A stretch of 64,000 nt of DNA from an uncultured Candidatus Rokubacteria bacterium (GCA_963708025.1 CAVPSB010000012.1:160001-224000); one strand, 5' to 3'. Numbered from the stretch's first letter, positions 17,145-25,496 are shown. Made by a program: numbers and translations. The notes: a model not told the origin generated them from the sequence alone.

Positions 17145-19545
17145 AGGACGGGTCCGCCCCCCCGGTCTCGAAGCGGTCCGGCTCCGCCTCCCGGCGCGCG
17201 TACGGCGCGCTCCTGCTCGGGCTCGGCCTGATCGTCGTCATCGCCCCGTTCGGCGCGGGCGGGTGGGCCGTCTCCATCCTGGGCCTCGTCGTGATCGTGG
17301 CCGGGGCGACCGAGGTCGTCCGGGGACTGCGCGCGTCGTCGCCCGACTCGACGTGGGTGACCTACCTGACGGGCGTCCTGATGATCCTGGGCGGGCTGCT
17401 GCTGGTCGCGCGACCCGTGATGGTGATCGGCGGGCTGCTGGCGCTCCTGGCGCTCATCCTGTCGGTCAACGGCCTCGCGAAGGTCGTCAGCGCCTTCCGG
17501 GACCGGGCCGGCGCGGCGCGCTGGTGGACGCTCTTCAGCGGCGTCGTCAATCTCCTGCTGGCGCTCCTCGTCTGGCGGCAGGGCGCCACCACCGGGGCGG
17601 TGGTGCTCGGCCTGAGCCTCGGCTTCTACGTCATGTCCACCGGGTGGACGGCGCTCCTGGCGCCCGACGAAGACGTCGAGGATCGTCGAGGGGCCAGGGG
17701 GCCAGCGAGCACCCGGACGAGCGGCTCGGTCTGCCCGCGCATGCGGAGCTCGGCCGGCTGCGGATCGCCGCCGTCGAGGGCGAGGTGGCCGCGCTGCCGG
17801 TCAACCGGTTCTGGATCGTCGTCCTGATCGTGGTGTTCTTCGCCATCCACGCCGGACGCCTGCAGTCGGACTGGACGTGGCTGGGCCTGATCTCGCCGGC
17901 GGTCGCCGTCGCCGGTGACGTGCTCTCGGCGCTGCTGGTGGCGGTGCTGTTGCTGCCGGTCTGGCTGAGCTGGCGCGCGCTCACCCGGCCGATCGAGCGC
18001 CGCGCCTGGGCGCGCCGCCTCTCGGGCCAGGCGGAGGCCCACGGCCTCGAGCTCGGCGAGCGCGCCGTCAACTGGTGACTCGACAGCCGACTCCGTTGGG
18101 GCGTGCGGCTGCGGCTGGCCCGCGGGTCGCTCCGCACGGCCCTCCAGCAGTGGCTCCGGACCGGCCTCCCCATCGTGGCGGTGGTGGTGGCCATCAACCC
18201 CATCTGGGGCTTCAGCTGGTACTTCAACACGGAGAACTGGGCGAGCGGCTTCTGGGAGCGGGTCACCGAGGCCCGGACCGACCACTGGCGCGAGGCCATG
18301 ATCGCGGCGGTGGAGCGCGCGGTGGTGCCGACCGGTGTGCCCCGGGCGGCCCTGTTCGAGGTGCGGCCGGACGGCGTCGGCGACGCCACGGATTTCAGCT
18401 TCGTCGTCATCGGCGATCCGGGCGAGGGCGACTCGTCCCAGGCGTCGCTGCGCGACCGCTACCTGGACCTCGGCCGGCGCCCCGACGTCAGGTTCCTCGT
18501 CGTGGCGTCCGACGTGATCTATCCCGGCGGCGCGATGCGCGACTACGAGTTCAACTTCTACCTGCCGTTCAAGGGCTTCCAGAAGCCGATCTACGCGATT
18601 CCCGGCAACCACGACTGGTTCAGCGCGCTGGACGGCTTCGCCGCCAACCTCATGGAGCCGGTGGCCGCCCGGGCGGCGATGGACGCCCGCGAGCAGTTGA
18701 CCGCGCTGGTCACCCCGCCGGACCGGAAGGGCGTCGCCAGCGCGGTGGCCGAGGCGGCGCGGCTGCGCGCGGAATACGGGGTCCGGACCGCCGAGCAGCG
18801 GGCCCCGTTCTTCGAAGTCCACGGGCGGGAGTTCTCCCTGATCGCCGTCGACACCGGCATCTTGCGCCGGATCGACCCCTCCCAGGCCGCGTGGCTCGAG
18901 GGCGCCCTGTCCCGGGCGCGTGACCGGTTCACGATGGTGATTCTCGGCCACCCGCTCTACGCCGGCGGCGCCTACCAGGGGTTCGACGAGGCGTTCGGCC
19001 GGATCCACGGTCTCCTGCGGCAGTACCGGGTCCCGGTCGTCATGGCCGGGGACACGCACGACTTCGAGTACTACCGGGAGCGGTACGACAGCCCCGGAGG
19101 CCCACGACTGATGCATCACTTCGTCAACGGCGGGGGCGGCGCCTATCTCAGCATCGGGACCGCCCTCGACTGGCCGCCGACACCACCAGTCCCGGACTGG
19201 GCCTTCTACCCGGCCACGGACGCCGTCCGCGCGAAGCTCGAGAGCGAGACCAGCCGGTGGAAGTGGCCGGTGTGGTGGTGGATCAAGCGCTTCAACGCCT
19301 GGCCGGCCTCGGTCGAGGCGCTGTCGGGGGCGTTCGACTTCAACCGCGCCCCGTTCTTCCAGAGCTTCGTGGAAGTCCGCGTGGAGGGCTCCGCACGGCG
19401 GGTGCGCTTGATCCTCCATGGCGTCGGGGGCCCGCTTCGCTGGCGCGACCTGCAGACCGGCGGCGCCGCCCGTTCGAACGGGGCGGGGCCGGACGACGCG
19501 GCCGAGTGGATCCTGCCGATGGAGGCCGCCGCGTCGGGGAAATGA
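17141..19545 (+). pseudogene. HdeD/DUF308-TM-calcineurin-like metallophosphoesterase fusion, interrupted by a frameshift (~17690) and an in-frame TGA (18076-18078)
   Basis: HdeD-like hydrophobic N-terminus from GTG 17141. The frame after the TGA (LDSRLRWGVRL) runs straight into GDPGEG, SDVIY, PGNHDW, GHPLY and AGDTH motifs. May be intact in vivo if these are assembly errors. Confidence 0.7.
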
Positions 19546-19699
19546 CTCCCCGGGGGTGTTCGGGCACCGGCCGACCCAGGCGTGCCGCCCACGATGCGAT
19601 TCGAGCCGGGAGCTGAGCTATACTGCGCACCACTTCCTCCAGCCCCCCTCCTCCCGGTGGGTGGGGGAGGGGGCTGGAGGCCCCGAATGGAGGTGAAGC

Positions 19700-20374
19700 A
19701 TGAACTCCGACGGTATCGGCGTGGTGGTGATCGGTCAGTCGCCGCGGCCCGACATCGAGGCGGAGCTGCGCGAGGTGCTGGGGAATCGGGTGCCGATCCG
19801 GCTGGTGGGCGCCCTCGACGGGCTGAGCCGGGCGGAGATCGACCGGCTCCGGCCGAGCGGCTCGCACGACGCGCTCTTCACCAACCTGCCGGACGGCTCC
19901 GGCGTCGTCATCAGCAAGGCCGAGGTGACCAAGCGGTCCCAGGCCCGGCTCGACTGGCTGGCCGAGCAGGGGATCGACGTGACGCTCATGAACTGCACCG
20001 GCGTCTTCGAGGGGCTCGTGCCCCGCGGCCACCTGGTCTTCCCGTCGGCGGTGCTGACCGGCCTGGTGCTGGGACTGCTGCCGCGAGGGCGACTCGGCGT
20101 GTTCATGCCGATCGCCGAGCAGGAGGCCGCGATGAAGGACAAGTGGAGCCAGGGCGAGTGGGAGGTCTCGGCGCTCCCCCTGCGACCCCGGACCGAGGGC
20201 GCGGAGCTCGACGCCGCGGCTCGCGAGATGGCGCGGGGACGCCCCGACCTGGTCGTGCTCGACTGCATGGGCTACGGGCAGGCGATGAAGCGCCGCGTTC
20301 GGGAGGTCACGGGGCTCCGCGCGGTGCTGGCCATCTCGGCCGCCGCCCGGGCCCTGCAGGAGCTGATCGCCTGA
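19700..20374 (+). CDS. aroM: AroM family protein
   Basis: IGQSPRPDI, GALDGLS, NCTG and VVLDCMGY motifs; GGAGG RBS. Confidence 0.88.
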   Translation: MNSDGIGVVVIGQSPRPDIEAELREVLGNRVPIRLVGALDGLSRAEIDRLRPSGSHDALFTNLPDGSGVVISKAEVTKRSQARLDWLAEQGIDVTLMNCTGVFEGLVPRGHLVFPSAVLTGLVLGLLPRGRLGVFMPIAEQEAAMKDKWSQGEWEVSALPLRPRTEGAELDAAAREMARGRPDLVVLDCMGYGQAMKRRVREVTGLRAVLAISAAARALQELIA

Positions 20375-20397
20375 TGGGCTCGTGAGCGAATCGCGCC

Positions 20398-20686
20398 GTC
20401 CGGTCCGCCCCCCGCCACCGGCCGAAGGCCGTCCGATCGGTAGGGAGGGGGGAGGGCGGGAGGTCCCGAGGTGAGAACGGGTAAAGGAGTGGGCCCCGTC
20501 CGGCCCCCCCTCCCCCGGCCAAAGGCCGAAGGCCGTCAAACAGTGGGGGAGGGGGGGTTGGGGGGGAGGGCGGGAGGTCCCAAGGTGAGAACGGGTAAAG
20601 GAGTGGGCCCCGTCCGGCCCCCCCTCCCCCGGTGGGTGGGGGAGGGGGGGTTGGGGGGGAGGGCGGGAGGTCCCAAAAGTCGCGCC
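20398..20686. repeat. G/C-rich repeat family A, 2-3 tandem copies inserted at the 5' end of the DUF917 gene
   Basis: GGGAGGGCGGGAGGTCCC x3; GTGAGAACGGGTAAAGGAGTGGGCCCCGTCCGGCCCCCCCTCCCCCGG x2 (20471, 20585); flanked by TCGCGCC direct repeats at 20391 and 20680. Confidence 0.8.
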
Positions 20687-21777
20687 CGGTCGCGCTCGAG
20701 GAGATCGAGCAGCTCGCCACCGGGGCCTGGATCCTCGGCACCGGCGGGGGCGGCAGCCCGTATCACGGCCTCCTCAACATGCGGAAGCTCTACCGGGAGG
20801 GGTCCGTCGTGCGCCTCCTCGACCCCGCCACCCTGGCCGACGACGACGACGTGGCCGTGGTGTCGTTCATGGGGGCGCCGCTGGTCGGCCAGGAGCGGTT
20901 CAAGGACCCGCGGGCGATCGCCCGCGCCGTCCGCATGATGGAGGAGTACACCGGCCGTCGGTTTCGCGCCGTCATGGCCGTCGAGATCGGCGGCGGCAAC
21001 GGGCTGGCCCCGTTCATGGCGGCCGCGCTCCTCGACATCCCGGTGGTGGACGCCGACGCGATGGGCCGGGCGTTCCCGGAAGCGCAGATGACGAGCTTCG
21101 CCATCAAGGAGCTGCCGTGCTTTCCGCTCACGCTGGCCGACGTGCGGGACAACGGCGTCATCGTGGCCCGGGCGGCGAGCTGGAAGTGGATGGAGCGCCT
21201 CTCCCGTAAGGTCTGCACCGAGGTCGGCTCCACCGCCGCCACCTGCAAGGCGCCGCGCACAGGCAAGGAGGTGAAGGAGGCCGGGATTCTCTACACGACC
21301 ACCAAGGCGATCCGGCTCGGCGCCACCGTCCAGGCGGCCCGACGCGCCCACCGCGACCCCATCGACGCCATCCTCGAGGCCGAGGGCGGTCGCGCGCTCT
21401 TCCGCGGCAAGGTGCGGGACGTCGCCCGCCGGACGACCGAGGGCTTCCTCCGCGGCACCGCCAGCCTGGAGGGGCTCGACGAGTTCGCCGGCCAGCGCTT
21501 CGATCTCGCCTTCCAGAACGAGTGGGCGGTCGGGTGGCACGACGGCGCTCCCCGGGTGACGACCCCGGACCTGATCTGCGTGATCGACAGCGTGGCGGGA
21601 GAGGCGATCGGGACCGAGACCCTGCGTTACGGCCAGCGGGTGAGCGTCGTCGTCCTGCCGGCGCCCGAGATCCTGCTGACGCCGAAGGGGCTCGACCACG
21701 TCGGCCCGCGAGCGTTCGGCTACGACCTCGACTTCCGGTCCGTGTTCGCCGAGGCGCCGACGGCGAGCCGGTCGTGA
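20632..21777 (+). CDS. DUF917 domain protein (start uncertain)
   Basis: GAWILGTGGGGSPY, MGAP, EIGGGNG, DADAMGRAFPE, FQNE and TETLRYG motifs. Confidence 0.9.
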   Translation: MGGGGGVGGEGGRSQKSRPVALEEIEQLATGAWILGTGGGGSPYHGLLNMRKLYREGSVVRLLDPATLADDDDVAVVSFMGAPLVGQERFKDPRAIARAVRMMEEYTGRRFRAVMAVEIGGGNGLAPFMAAALLDIPVVDADAMGRAFPEAQMTSFAIKELPCFPLTLADVRDNGVIVARAASWKWMERLSRKVCTEVGSTAATCKAPRTGKEVKEAGILYTTTKAIRLGATVQAARRAHRDPIDAILEAEGGRALFRGKVRDVARRTTEGFLRGTASLEGLDEFAGQRFDLAFQNEWAVGWHDGAPRVTTPDLICVIDSVAGEAIGTETLRYGQRVSVVVLPAPEILLTPKGLDHVGPRAFGYDLDFRSVFAEAPTASRS

Positions 21778-22400
21778 GGCGGATCGGGCGTCGTGGCCCA
21801 GCCGGCCCCCGAGATCCTGCTGGCACCCAGGGGATTCGGCACGTGGGGCGGGCGGTGAGGCGGATCGGGCGTCGTGGCCCAGCCGGCCCCCGAGATCCTG
21901 CTGGCACCCAGGGGATCGGGCACGTGGGCCGGGGCGATGAGGCGGATCGGGCGTCGTGGCCCAGCCGGCCCCCGAGATCCTGCTGGCACCCAGGGGATTC
22001 GGGCACGTGGGGCCGGGGGCGTTCAGCCGTGAGGCGGATCGGGCGTCGTGGCCCAGCCGGCCCCCGAGATCCTGCTGGCACCCAGGGGATTCGGGCACGT
22101 GGGGCCGGGGGCGTTCAGCCGTGAGGCGGATCGGGCGTCGTGGCCCAGCCGGCCCCCGAGATCCTGCTGGCACCCAGGGGATTCGGGCACGTGGGGCCGG
22201 GGGCGTTCAGCCGTGAGGCGGATCGGGCGTCGTGGCCCAGCCGGCCCCCGAGATCCTGCTGGCACCCAGGGGATTCGGGCACGTGGGGCCGGGGGCGTTC
22301 AGCCGTGAGGCGGATCGGGCGTCGTGGCCCAGCCGGCCCCCGAGATCCTGCTGGCACCCAGGGGATTCGAGCACGTCGGGCCGCGGGCGGTCGGCCATGA
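21774..22400 (+). repeat. Tandem array of 7 units (81, 82, then 5 x 92 bp)
   Basis: Units start at 21774, 21855, 21937, 22029, 22121, 22213 and 22305, each (G/A)TGAGGCGGATCGGGCGTCGTGGCCCAGCCGGCCCCCGAGATCCTGCTGGCACCCAGGGGAT... Confidence 0.97.
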
Positions 22401-23941
22401 GGCGGATCGGCGTCGACGTCGGCGGGACCAACACCGACGCCGTGCTGCTGGACGGGTCGCGGGTCGAGCACGCGGTGAAGACGCCGACCACCGGAGACGT
22501 CACCTCCGGGATCACCGAAGCCCTGCGCCGCCTGCTGGCGGCCGTCCCGGCCGAGGCGCGCCGGGTGGATGCCGTGATGATCGGCACCACCCACTTCACC
22601 AACGCGGTGGCGCAGCGCCGCGACCTCACGCCGGTGGCGGCGGTCCGCATCGGGCTCCCGGCCAGCGCCTCCCTGGAGCCGTTCATCGACTGGCCGGAGG
22701 ACCTGGCCGCGATCGCGCGCGGCCGGGTGTTCATGGTCGAGGGCGGCCACGAGGTGGACGGCCGGCCGATCGTGCCCTTCGACGAGACGGCGATGCGCCG
22801 CGTCGCCCGCGAGATCCGGGCCTCCGGTCTCCGCTCGGTCGGGGTCACCGCGATCTTCTCGCCGATCGACCCGGGCGGCGAGAAGATGGCGGGCGCCATC
22901 CTGGCCGAGGAGTGCCCGGGCGTCGCCGTCACGCTGTCCCACGCGCTGGGACGCATCGGGCTGCTCGAGCGCGAGAACGCCTGCCTGCTCAACGCCGCCC
23001 TGGTCGAGCTGGCCCGCACGACGACCCGGGCCTTCACCGACGCGCTGGCCGCCAGCGGGATCGACGCGCCGCTCTACCTCACCCAGAACGACGGGACGGT
23101 GACGGTGGCCAGCCAGGCCGAGGCGTTCCCGGTCTACAGCTTCGCCTCCGGGCCCACCAACAGCATGCGGGGCGCCGCGTTCCTGTCCGGGCTCGACGAC
23201 GCCGTGGTGATCGACGTGGGGGGGACCACGACCGACGTCGGCTGCCTGAAGCACGGCTTCCCGCGCGAGGCCAACGCCGTCGTCGAGGTCGGGGGCGTGC
23301 GGACGCTGTTCCGGATGCCCGACCTGCTCTCGCTCGCGCTCGGCGGCGGGACGCTGGTCGAGCCGTCGCCGCTCTCGATCGGCCCGCGCAGCGTCGGCTT
23401 CCGGCTGACCGAGCAGGCGCTCGTCTTCGGCGGCGACCGGCTCACCGCCACCGACCTCGCCGTCGCCGCCGGGCTGATCGAGCTGGGTGATCCGGCCCGC
23501 GTCGCCCACCTCGGCCGCGACCTGGTCGAGGCCGCCATCCGCGCGATCCACGGGCGGATCGCCGAGGCCGTCGACCGCATGAAGACGGATGCCCACGACG
23601 TGCCCGTGGTGGCGGTCGGCGGCGGCGCCTTCCTGGTGCCGCCCACCATGCCCGGCGTCTCGCGGGTGGTCCGGGTGGCGCACCACGCGGTCGCCAACGC
23701 GGTGGGCGCCGCCATCGCCCAGGTCAGCGGGGAGCTGGACCAGGTCTTTCAGAACATGAGCCGCGAGGCGGCGATCGCCGAGGCCCGAGGCCTGGCCGAG
23801 GAGCGCGCGGTCCGGGCCGGCGCCGCCCGGGAGAGCCTCAAGGTCGTCGAGGTCGAGGACATCCCGCTGGCCTACCTGCCGGGCAACTCGCTGCGGACCC
23901 GCGTCCGCGTCGTCGGCGACATCGCGGGGGTGTCGGGCTAG
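22397..23941 (+). CDS. Hydantoinase A/oxoprolinase family protein
   Basis: MRRIGVDVGGTNTDAV, GTTHFTNA, LLERENA, QNDGT, SGPTNSMRGA, IDVGGTTTDVG and ANAVGAA motifs. Confidence 0.93.
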   Translation: MRRIGVDVGGTNTDAVLLDGSRVEHAVKTPTTGDVTSGITEALRRLLAAVPAEARRVDAVMIGTTHFTNAVAQRRDLTPVAAVRIGLPASASLEPFIDWPEDLAAIARGRVFMVEGGHEVDGRPIVPFDETAMRRVAREIRASGLRSVGVTAIFSPIDPGGEKMAGAILAEECPGVAVTLSHALGRIGLLERENACLLNAALVELARTTTRAFTDALAASGIDAPLYLTQNDGTVTVASQAEAFPVYSFASGPTNSMRGAAFLSGLDDAVVIDVGGTTTDVGCLKHGFPREANAVVEVGGVRTLFRMPDLLSLALGGGTLVEPSPLSIGPRSVGFRLTEQALVFGGDRLTATDLAVAAGLIELGDPARVAHLGRDLVEAAIRAIHGRIAEAVDRMKTDAHDVPVVAVGGGAFLVPPTMPGVSRVVRVAHHAVANAVGAAIAQVSGELDQVFQNMSREAAIAEARGLAEERAVRAGAARESLKVVEVEDIPLAYLPGNSLRTRVRVVGDIAGVSG

Positions 23942-24017
23942 CCTGACCCGTTCACCACGCGCGCGGGTCCGAGCCACGGCACGGTGTCCACGGTCAGGCC
24001 TCGTCGGGCGGGCCGAG

Positions 24018-25496
24018 CTACCGCACGCCTTGCTTCGCCTTGCGCCGCTCTTCCGCTTCCTCCATGGCCAGCGTGTAGGCCACGTAGTACTTGTAGATGT
24101 TGCTCACGTACTGCACCGTCTCCCGGCCGATGCGCTCGGCGGCGACCCGCTCCACGTTGTTGAACCAGAGGTTCGGGTTGAGCCCGCGCCGCTCGGCCTC
24201 CCGCCGGAGCTGGTCGACCCGCCCCGGTCCCGCGTTGTAGGCGGCGAACGCGAAGAGCCCCTTGTTCAGGGCGTCCATGGGCTCGTCCGCGAAGTACTGG
24301 TCGATCATGAACCGGATGTACTTGACGCCGGCGTGGATGTTCGGCTCGAGCCGCTGGATGTCGCCGACCTTCAGGTCCTTCGCGGTCTTGGGCATCACCT
24401 GCATCACGCCGACGGCGCCGACGGGGCTCTTCACGTTCTGGTCGAGCCGGGATTCCTGGTAGCCCTGGGCCGCCATGAGCAGCCAGTCGAGCTTGTAGCG
24501 GTCGCCGTACTTGCGGAACAGCGACACCGTCTCCCGGAACCGCTTCATGTCGGCGGTGTTGGTGGCGCTCTTCACGAACTTCGTGCTCTTGAGGTAGCGC
24601 TGCGTGAGGATGTTGCCGAACGTGGTTTGCGCGCCGTGTCGCTTCAGGAACGCATCGATCTCCGCCTCGAGCTTCGGGCTGTTCTTCCGGATGGCGGGAG
24701 CGGTCATGGCGTCCCGACGCACCGCGAGATCGAAGTGCGGCGTGATCGCGGGGAAGACCTGCTTCCAGAACGTCGCCAGGTAGCTGTCCACGATCGTGAT
24801 CTTGACCAGGCCGGCGTTCAGCATCTCCAGGATGTCTTCGGTCTCCAGGGCCTCGGGGGCGGCCTTCAGCACGACTTCCTTCTTGCCCGCGGCCTTGAAG
24901 CGCCGGTTCAGCTCGACCAGGCTCTCGTGATAGCTGCTGGACCGGCGGACGAAAACCTCCCGGCCGGCCAGGTCCTCCAGGCGGGCGATCCGAGGAGCTC
25001 CGGGCCCGGTGACGACGACCTCGTCCACCTTGGTGCGCCCGGGAGCGGTGAAGTCGACCAGCTTTTCCCGCTCGGGGGTGACGGTGAGGCCGGCCACGAC
25101 CAGGTCCCCCCGACCTTCCACCAGGCCGGGCAGCATCTCGTCGCGTGAGACCGGCACGAACACCACCTGCACCCTCAGGAGGCCGGTCTTGAGCCTGGCG
25201 TTGAGCTCCTCCTCGAGCTTCCGGCCCATCTCGTACGCGACGCCGTGCTGGTCCCCCTTGTCGACGAAGTAGTACGTCTTGCTGTAGGGGACCAACATGC
25301 GAATCATTCGCCGCTCGATCATGCCGTCCAGATCACCGGTCCACTTGGCCGTGATCTGCTCCAGCGGGATCGTCGTCGGCGCTGGCGACTGGGCGAAAGC
25401 GACCCCCCCGCCGGCCGCGCACAGCAGCAGGACCGATAGCGCTCTGATGATCATGGCACCTCGCTTCCCCTCGCTTTTGTCGGCGACGCTGCCCAT
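24018..25496 (-). CDS. mltF: MltF-family lytic transglycosylase (SBP_bac_3 + SLT)
   Basis: Signal peptide, WTGDLDGMIERR, AQGYQESRLDQ, GAVGVMQV, AAYNAGPG and ETVQYV motifs. The start may be ~25454. Confidence 0.9.
   Translation of the reverse strand: MGSVADKSEGKRGAMIIRALSVLLLCAAGGGVAFAQSPAPTTIPLEQITAKWTGDLDGMIERRMIRMLVPYSKTYYFVDKGDQHGVAYEMGRKLEEELNARLKTGLLRVQVVFVPVSRDEMLPGLVEGRGDLVVAGLTVTPEREKLVDFTAPGRTKVDEVVVTGPGAPRIARLEDLAGREVFVRRSSSYHESLVELNRRFKAAGKKEVVLKAAPEALETEDILEMLNAGLVKITIVDSYLATFWKQVFPAITPHFDLAVRRDAMTAPAIRKNSPKLEAEIDAFLKRHGAQTTFGNILTQRYLKSTKFVKSATNTADMKRFRETVSLFRKYGDRYKLDWLLMAAQGYQESRLDQNVKSPVGAVGVMQVMPKTAKDLKVGDIQRLEPNIHAGVKYIRFMIDQYFADEPMDALNKGLFAFAAYNAGPGRVDQLRREAERRGLNPNLWFNNVERVAAERIGRETVQYVSNIYKYYVAYTLAMEEAEERRKAKQGVR

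Follow-up and report, generated by a model that had tools for sequence, protein, structure and literature searches.

A chimeric tandem array at a DUF917-hydantoinase gene junction of an uncultured Candidatus Rokubacteria bacterium, probably grown from the junction itself

The junction between a DUF917/S-Me-THD-like gene and a hydantoinase-A-like gene of an uncultured Candidatus Rokubacteria bacterium is filled, at positions 21774-22396 of the 64,000-nt stretch analysed here (GCA_963708025.1 CAVPSB010000012.1:160001-224000; hereafter the window), by a tandem array of seven head-to-tail units. Each unit joins a piece of one flanking gene to a piece of the other, and the array is probably a lineage-specific minisatellite that grew from the gene junction by microhomology-mediated tandem duplication and has been tolerated there. 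Beyond what an earlier interpretation of the window (the sequence-only reading) had described, unrelated tandem arrays recur at the DUF917-hydantoinase junction of relatives, where 11 related loci have one.

Tandem Repeats Finder (TRF) describes the array as having a period of 92 nt, 5.2 copies and 98% matches (score 907), enclosed within a larger array at 21773-22415 (score 1058), and in the whole window, whose G+C content is 72.8%, this junction array is the only one that scores 80 or more. Unit boundaries set by parsing on the shared motif place the unit starts at 21774, 21855, 21937, 22029, 22121, 22213 and 22305, with lengths, in that order, of 81, 82, 92, 92, 92, 92 and 92 nt; TRF and motif parsing together reproduce the seven units proposed earlier. 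Units 3-6 are identical save for the first letter of unit 3 (ATGA instead of GTGA), unit 7 differs from them at 5 positions, and units 1 and 2 have lost the 7 nt TTCAGCC and have shortened G/C runs, giving an array with identical inner units and diverged edge units. The features on which the argument rests are as follows.

20632..21777, plus strand: DUF917/S-Me-THD-like gene (Pfam), whose TGA at 21775-21777 overlaps the GTG at 21774 of unit 1
21644..21720, plus strand: DUF917-internal source of unit positions 15-91, beginning GCGTCG (gapless alignment)
21774..21854, plus strand: unit 1 (81 nt; without TTCAGCC and with short G/C runs; motif parsing)
21855..21936, plus strand: unit 2 (82 nt; same 7-nt loss and short runs; motif parsing)
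21937..22304, plus strand: units 3-6 (4 x 92 nt; unit 3 begins ATGA; TRF and motif parsing)
22305..22396, plus strand: unit 7 (92 nt; the unit nearest to the DUF917 source; parsing, alignment and the contig X1 described below)
22397..23941, plus strand: hydantoinase-A-like gene, ATG 22397 (Pfam Hydant_A_N and Hydantoinase_A)

The identities of both flanking genes, as first named from the sequence, are borne out by Pfam: the gene at 20632-21777 matches S-Me-THD_N (6e-56) and S-Me-THD_C (7e-66), formerly DUF917, and the hydantoinase match runs from residue 3, relatives beginning at the same M(R/K)RIG. The sequence-only reading had also taken the array for an amplified gene junction, and the unit is indeed built from both sides of it. 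Unit positions 1-14 are identical to bases 1-14 of the hydantoinase gene, in agreement with the proposal that each unit copies the start of that gene, and positions 15-91 align without gaps to DUF917 positions 21644-21720, with 63 of 77 identities in unit 7 and 60 of 77 in unit 4, so that the DUF917 relic in the units is 78-82% identical to its source. This relic had been described as the 3' end of DUF917, but it is an internal piece of the gene, lying 57-134 nt upstream of the stop codon. The hexamer GCGTCG is found at both parent sites (bases 14-19 of the hydantoinase gene and 21644-21649 in DUF917), and the novel joint sits on this microhomology, with the one extra G that had already been noticed. 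Because a duplication of 21644-21787 would span 144 nt and the actual unit measures 92 nt, a second event would have deleted about 52 nt. A foreign source of the relic was considered and rejected, the best of 171 homologous loci matching at 64 of 77 positions against 63 of 77 for the window's own gene.

The unit appears to be confined to this lineage, and the junction from which it arose can be read in relatives, here metagenome-assembled genomes labelled Candidatus Rokubacteria, Rokuibacteriota or Methylomirabilota. A search of the 8.17-Mb, 49-contig host genome finds the unit at this locus only, plus the DUF917 source segment (78%, E 1.2e-10), and none of 40 other genomes of the same family and order has a match covering a unit, the only matches there being weak ones (E 2e-4 or worse) that overlap the query's array portion at its first bases. 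The 24-nt joint, sought as an exact match only, returned 0 matches in metagenome contigs and 0 in genome contigs, two collections from which the own genome may be absent. Among the 9 relatives read, 7 show the stop of DUF917 running into the start of the hydantoinase gene as GTGA or ATGA, which gives the amplified junction its unexpanded 4-nt NTGA counterpart. Extrapolated for 153 loci with both genes, the spacing comes out as -4 in 40, -1 in 53 and no more than 10 nt in 115; the extrapolation used does not cleanly tell -4 from -1. No unit is present in the nearest relative, L031 (94% identical in protein over 356 columns), where the two genes meet in a plain GTGA overlap, and the close relative L032 has an unrelated spacer of about 110 nt with a hairpin at the junction.

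Divergence offers a rough clock. At third codon positions this genome and L031 share a fraction of 0.79 in DUF917 and 0.76 in hydantoinase (21-24% divergence), and relic and source are 0.82 identical over all 77 positions (18% diverged). Because the divergence of the relic roughly matches the third-position divergence from L031, the seed of the array looks old, and may have drifted for about as long as the two lineages have been separate; units 3-6, because they are identical, look like a very recent expansion, and unit 7 is probably the old seed unit. The array may then be traced as follows. From an NTGA overlap of DUF917 stop and hydantoinase start, such as relatives retain, the piece reaching from 21644 to base 14 of the hydantoinase gene has been tandemly duplicated in this lineage at the GCGTCG microhomology. 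The downstream copy would then have lost its roughly 52 nt to leave a 92-nt seed of the unit 7 type. Much later, after its long drift, this seed would have been amplified into identical copies by slippage or unequal recombination.

Tolerance of such an insertion inside a gene cluster is most easily understood from the reading frames. All 8 plus-strand stops in 21760-22410 are unit TGAs, each lying within an NTGA (preceded by G or A), and the stop table yields four relay open reading frames (ORFs).

21774..22124, plus strand: relay ORF 1, 116 codons, whose GTG overlaps the DUF917 stop and whose TGA overlaps GTG 22121
22121..22216, plus strand: relay ORF 2, 31 codons
22213..22308, plus strand: relay ORF 3, 31 codons
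22305..22400, plus strand: relay ORF 4, 31 codons, whose TGA overlaps ATG 22397

The proposed chain from the DUF917 stop to the hydantoinase ATG at 22397 is thus found in the stop table, running through the 116-codon ORF and then three ORFs of 31 codons. Its uniform 31-codon links hold for the last three ORFs but fail ahead of them, where units 1 and 2 measure 81 and 82 nt and the relay is the single 116-codon ORF, and even the figure of 31 applies only if the GTG beside the previous stop is chosen, the frames being open for 86 codons each. Ribosome coupling is likewise kept in a formal sense, but mostly as a by-product: a unit has no stop besides the TGA within its NTGA, so that translation entering the array in any frame must finish at a restart site, and the relay chain, judged from the sequence, is largely automatic. 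A ribosome ending at 21775-21777 could restart at GTG 21774 and then at 22121, 22213 and 22305, and so arrive at ATG 22397. Because each copy recreates the stop/start signal, the array would be tolerated and not polar. Each stop and restart would lose some ribosomes, such that hydantoinase output relative to DUF917 would fall as copies rise, and the relay peptides would be by-products.

By our own arithmetic for a -4 overlap, units of 3n+2 nt supply one relay ORF each whatever the copy number, and in this class the -4 relay stays intact however many copies there are; with a period of 3n the outcome is an in-frame N-terminal extension, and one of 3n+1 works for even copy numbers only. As a separate observation, no stop interrupts the hydantoinase frame in the 60 codons before ATG 22397 (22217-22396), which include a GTG at 22232, and initiation at that GTG would yield an N-terminally extended enzyme, comparable to those of relatives with in-frame arrays.

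The same junction carries arrays in other genomes. Of 160 loci, 17 have a 21-nt core (up to 3 mismatches, gene strand) at the DUF917-hydantoinase junction, with 2-4 tandem copies of it in 12. TRF applied to the 160 related loci (847 kb) finds 9 arrays scoring above 200, 7 of them at this junction, and TRF alone gives 6 arrays among the 108 loci with adjacent genes. The relatives' junction arrays have periods of 36-74 nt and fall in all three residue classes modulo 3 (36, 45 and 48 in frame; 46, which is 3n+1 with an 11-nt overlap; and 74, which is 3n+2), contrary to any general 3n+2 rule of the kind suggested by the window. Every non-3n array observed sits in the corresponding robust phase class. 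The array-bearing subclade has a hydantoinase with an N-terminal extension of about 20 residues, from which the arrays are built, and the modes of joining are diverse: the 74-nt units of L079 and L154 are 25-codon truncated copies of the hydantoinase start chained by ATGA; the 46-nt units of L035 are chained by an 11-nt overlap, the native junction of that locus; L037 and L064 (48 nt) and L081 (45 nt) have in-frame repeats; and in L016 a 50-codon ORF containing an internal repeat forms the bridge, linked through ATGA and TAATG. Translation reads as continuous through all seven of the relatives' arrays read out.

Arrays at this junction also differ among relatives. Copy number is 4 in L081 and 1 in L092, two loci whose flanks are 98.9% identical, in an array unrelated to that of the window. 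In a FastTree phylogeny of 112 DUF917 proteins, a quick method applied to related rows, the 12 array-bearing rows need at least 8 changes, at least 6 of them forced by starred (well-supported) branches. Two further rearrangements were seen in the related loci. Compared with L035, to which it is 97.5% identical, L038 has about 660 nt (L038:3598-4258) inserted ahead of the 46-nt array, on its DUF917 side, and L155 has a 77-nt x 2 duplication (L155:1642-1798) at the TGATG junction of two permease-like genes, in which a 25-codon mini-ORF joins the first 14 residues of the downstream gene to the last 11 of the upstream gene.

It is against this background that a selective explanation has to be weighed, namely that the array is a rheostat in which variable copy number sets the hydantoinase:DUF917 ratio by serial termination and reinitiation, or in which the G-rich units slow ribosomes, with the junction acting by either route as a contingency-like locus in Rokubacteria. 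The recurrence of arrays at an orthologous junction (12 of 112 rows of the DUF917 tree), their concentration among the highest-scoring TRF arrays of the related loci, the continuity of translation in all seven of the relatives' arrays read out and the difference in copy number between near-identical strains all speak for it, as does the fact that four independent non-3n arrays (periods 92, 74, 46 and, in L155, 77) are all relay-preserving where about half would be expected by phase. Yet continuity comes largely automatically in stop-poor DNA of 72% G+C, four events cannot carry a test, and the loci, being related, are not independent; the nearest relative L031 manages without any unit, and a local mutational hotspot explains the recurrence equally well. 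Candidates for such a hotspot include cryptic hexamer repeats in the 5' end of the hydantoinase gene and a hairpin in the relatives' N-terminal extension. A rheostat is thus possible but unlikely, and evidence that the array is a selected device was not seen in this sequence analysis. The stronger form of the idea, that the junction is a selected, self-renewing copy-number dial whose arrays are built from its own sequence only in ribosome-permissive phases, we consider rather unlikely; if true, copy number would set the ratio of the two enzymes, perhaps reinforced by the G-quadruplex-type motif of the amplified variant.

A different kind of explanation is that the array is an artefact or an inflation of assembly, its tandem copies having been made by the assembler from strain variants of one unit. 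The assembly is in 49 contigs with an estimated contamination of 8.18%, units 1 and 2 differ by run-length changes typical of consensus errors, and none of the independent contigs listed lies on the unit 1/2 or 2/3 boundaries. These contigs come from public sequencing runs, at least 20 of which (17 studies) share part of 21300-22900, the best share being 0.46; four of the runs were compared with the locus, all as contigs. The X1 contig (22319-22427, 6 other letters) holds 78 of the 92 nt of a unit-7-like copy and continues 31 letters past the boundary into hydantoinase, and the X3 contig (22304-22425, 4 other letters) holds a whole unit-7-like copy and 29 letters of hydantoinase. The X4 contig, of 107 nt (22028-22134, 1 other letter), contains a complete unit of the 3-6 type and the 14 shared bases, and the X9 contig (22248-22330, 1 other letter) spans the unit 6/7 boundary with 57 letters before it and 26 after, the 26 including those that distinguish a unit from the hydantoinase gene. 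Contigs of other runs thus carry the chimeric insertion with differences of their own, which shows it to be real and present in other strains, and four identical 92-nt copies are rarely invented by assemblers. For tandem repetition as such the independent contigs give weak support. On balance an artefact is improbable.

The same contigs were used for three further readings, two of which were dropped. A single unit in the X1 and X3 strains, with units 1 and 2 as noise, was abandoned: no contig is at least 90% alike on 21840-21893 (four runs) or on 21840-22271 (X1 and X3), but contigs cannot show absence. A low copy number in X4, suggested by depth (9.6 for the unit contig, 7-9 for the flanks), was abandoned because contig depths are not copy numbers. 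Contigs that join 21749 directly to 22398 occur once in X4 and twice in X3; their hydantoinase starts are unlike that of the window, and they most likely come from other organisms without the array.

The least convincing possibility is a functional product of the array: 31-residue peptides rich in Arg, Gly and Pro, a structured RNA or a G-quadruplex array. The peptides quoted in the sequence-only reading are reproduced, both the 31-codon ORF and the relic reading PAPEILLAPRGFGHVGPGAFS, and the ORFs are uninterrupted, with a G run adjoining their starts; a peptide could be made. Composition points the other way. GC by codon position is 0.87/0.77/0.63 in the mini-ORF frame, against 0.71/0.51/0.95 and 0.75/0.51/0.98 in the flanking genes, and the old DUF917 frame inside the unit gives 0.80/0.56/0.92; because the third-position value of 0.63 is not coding-like, the Arg/Gly/Pro-rich peptide reads as an out-of-frame translation and not as a selected protein. 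Neither a coding-like composition nor an occurrence of the unit outside this lineage was found. An Rfam search gave no match within the array at E<=1, and the fold of two units shows no excess stability (z +0.8; 162 of 200 shuffles fold at least as well).

21911-21934, 21993-22019, 22085-22111, 22177-22203 and 22269-22295, plus strand: G-run motifs

These canonical four-tract G-run motifs, one on the sense strand in each of units 2-6, make up 5 of the 15 plus-strand motifs of this type in the window (the minus strand has 7) and might favour a G-quadruplex. Unit 7, the older form, has no four-tract motif, and 3 of the 5 changes that separate units 3-6 from it create G runs. With a non-coding frame, a unit not conserved beyond the lineage and neither an Rfam match nor a stable fold, a functional product is very improbable.

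Growth of a tolerated minisatellite from the junction thus remains the preferred account, but several points weigh against it. The joint contains one G more than the simple microhomology model would give, and that model needs a second event, the loss of about 52 nt, that can be neither dated nor proven. X9, the sole contig over a unit-unit boundary, has 26 letters on one side, short of the threshold of 31, and the count of seven units as well as the 81- and 82-nt lengths of units 1 and 2 come from this one assembly alone. Passage of ribosomes along the relay is itself deduced from the arrangement of stops and starts. Finally, arrays are concentrated at this junction (7 of the 9 strongest in the 847 kb from related loci), and all non-3n arrays belong to a relay-preserving phase class; pure neutrality accounts for both facts less well than some selection or a local mutational hotspot would.

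Microhomology-mediated tandem duplication and the dynamics of minisatellites, or variable number tandem repeats, are familiar processes, with homogenised inner copies and diverged edge copies. The present array resembles them in the 6-nt microhomology at its joint, and its homogenised inner units, and related strains differ in copy number in an unrelated array at the same junction; it differs in that the duplicated piece spans a gene boundary, so that each copy recreates the stop/start signal, and in that one junction has been struck repeatedly in many lineages.

As an organisation, the array is a locally made look-alike of MIRUs, the interspersed repetitive units of mycobacteria, with no new mechanism. 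According to PMC12548453, which cites Supply et al. 1997, MIRUs insert at start codons, with the ORF of the repeat coupled at -4 to the gene. Both are short tandem units between co-directional operon genes (here 7 units of 81-92 nt) whose ORFs are joined by -4 (NTGA) overlaps, and in both the insertion would little affect the downstream gene. Copy number is variable in MIRUs, and at this junction such variation is seen in an unrelated array (4 copies in L081, 1 in L092). The differences are that MIRUs are dispersed over many loci and apparently mobile, whereas the 92-nt unit is unique in its genome and made from its two flanking genes, and that the host is a Rokubacteria-like soil bacterium; the likeness described here is one of organisation.

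The links themselves are ordinary. NTGA is described, in PMC12548453, as the commonest translational coupling motif, and every link in the array is of this kind, the unexpanded junction of relatives being a -4 or -1 overlap; what differs is that five links stand in series here instead of one, with non-functional relay ORFs between them. A similar partial likeness holds for bicistronic designs and short upstream ORFs, where a short ORF ending on a gene start serves to deliver ribosomes (PMC12548453); such designs, natural or engineered, are single, and the present one is an accidental, multi-copy by-product. The literature searched yielded no paper on locally made junction arrays or on tandem repeats in Rokubacteria, and nothing relevant on DUF917 together with hydantoinase.

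The array lies within a larger cluster, AroM - DUF917 - hydantoinase, whose first gene is listed here.

19700..20374, plus strand: AroM-family gene (Pfam AroM, E 1.7e-62)

Because a scan of 19500-24200 found no promoter-like or terminator-like site, the three genes look like one transcription unit. The start of DUF917 is also disrupted in the window (20372-20680). In relatives the AroM stop overlaps the DUF917 start as TGATG, followed by MGEEARAV.. or MGDPSRPV...; in the window the ATG at 20374 encodes just MGS before a GTGA, and about 300 nt with three tandem copies of a G/C-run hairpin element lie between that GTGA and the body of DUF917, the sole remaining in-frame start being GTG 20632, inside the last hairpin element. 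This element belongs to a dispersed family. The query 20495-20609 gives 394 blastn-short high-scoring segment pairs in the own genome, of which 35 span 70 nt or more with 85-95% identity, and sites include C2:216010-216643, C32:131823-132320, C44:53037-53322 and 20397-20680 of the window, with tandem arrays of period 100-111 in the genome. The 3' end of the element, GGGAGGTCCC, is found 337 times where about 87 would be expected, and because it often stands 3-8 nt ahead of a gene's ATG, the element seems to bring a Shine-Dalgarno-like site. It may be an element of Rokubacteria resembling MIRUs or repetitive extragenic palindromes (REP).

Other sequences lie at the DUF917-hydantoinase junction of some relatives. 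The spacer in L032 (L032:1925-2035) has a C-run/G-run hairpin and a GGCCAAAGGCCGAAGGCCG motif, and resembles the element upstream of DUF917 in the window. Some relatives have an extra gene between DUF917 and hydantoinase, of about 1.4 kb in G033 and G006; in G002 (L030, G002:C69 2080-2671; L029, G002:C121 1-160) the extra gene has NTGA overlaps at both ends, and the contig breaks inside it.

The array would show how an operon junction can lengthen by several hundred bases with translational coupling left intact. It would also show that bacteria are able to build MIRU-like relay repeats locally, without a mobile element. A practical consequence is that such arrays break short-read contigs, as in L071, whose contig ends inside its junction array, and can mislead gene callers on start codons. 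The array is valuable mainly because nature has run many such experiments independently at this one junction. With in-frame arrays, -4 relays and -11 relays built independently at one orthologous site, the junction provides a natural series suited to tests of what spacing, phase and restart number do to coupling, and the same series could separate neutral passengers from expression dials.

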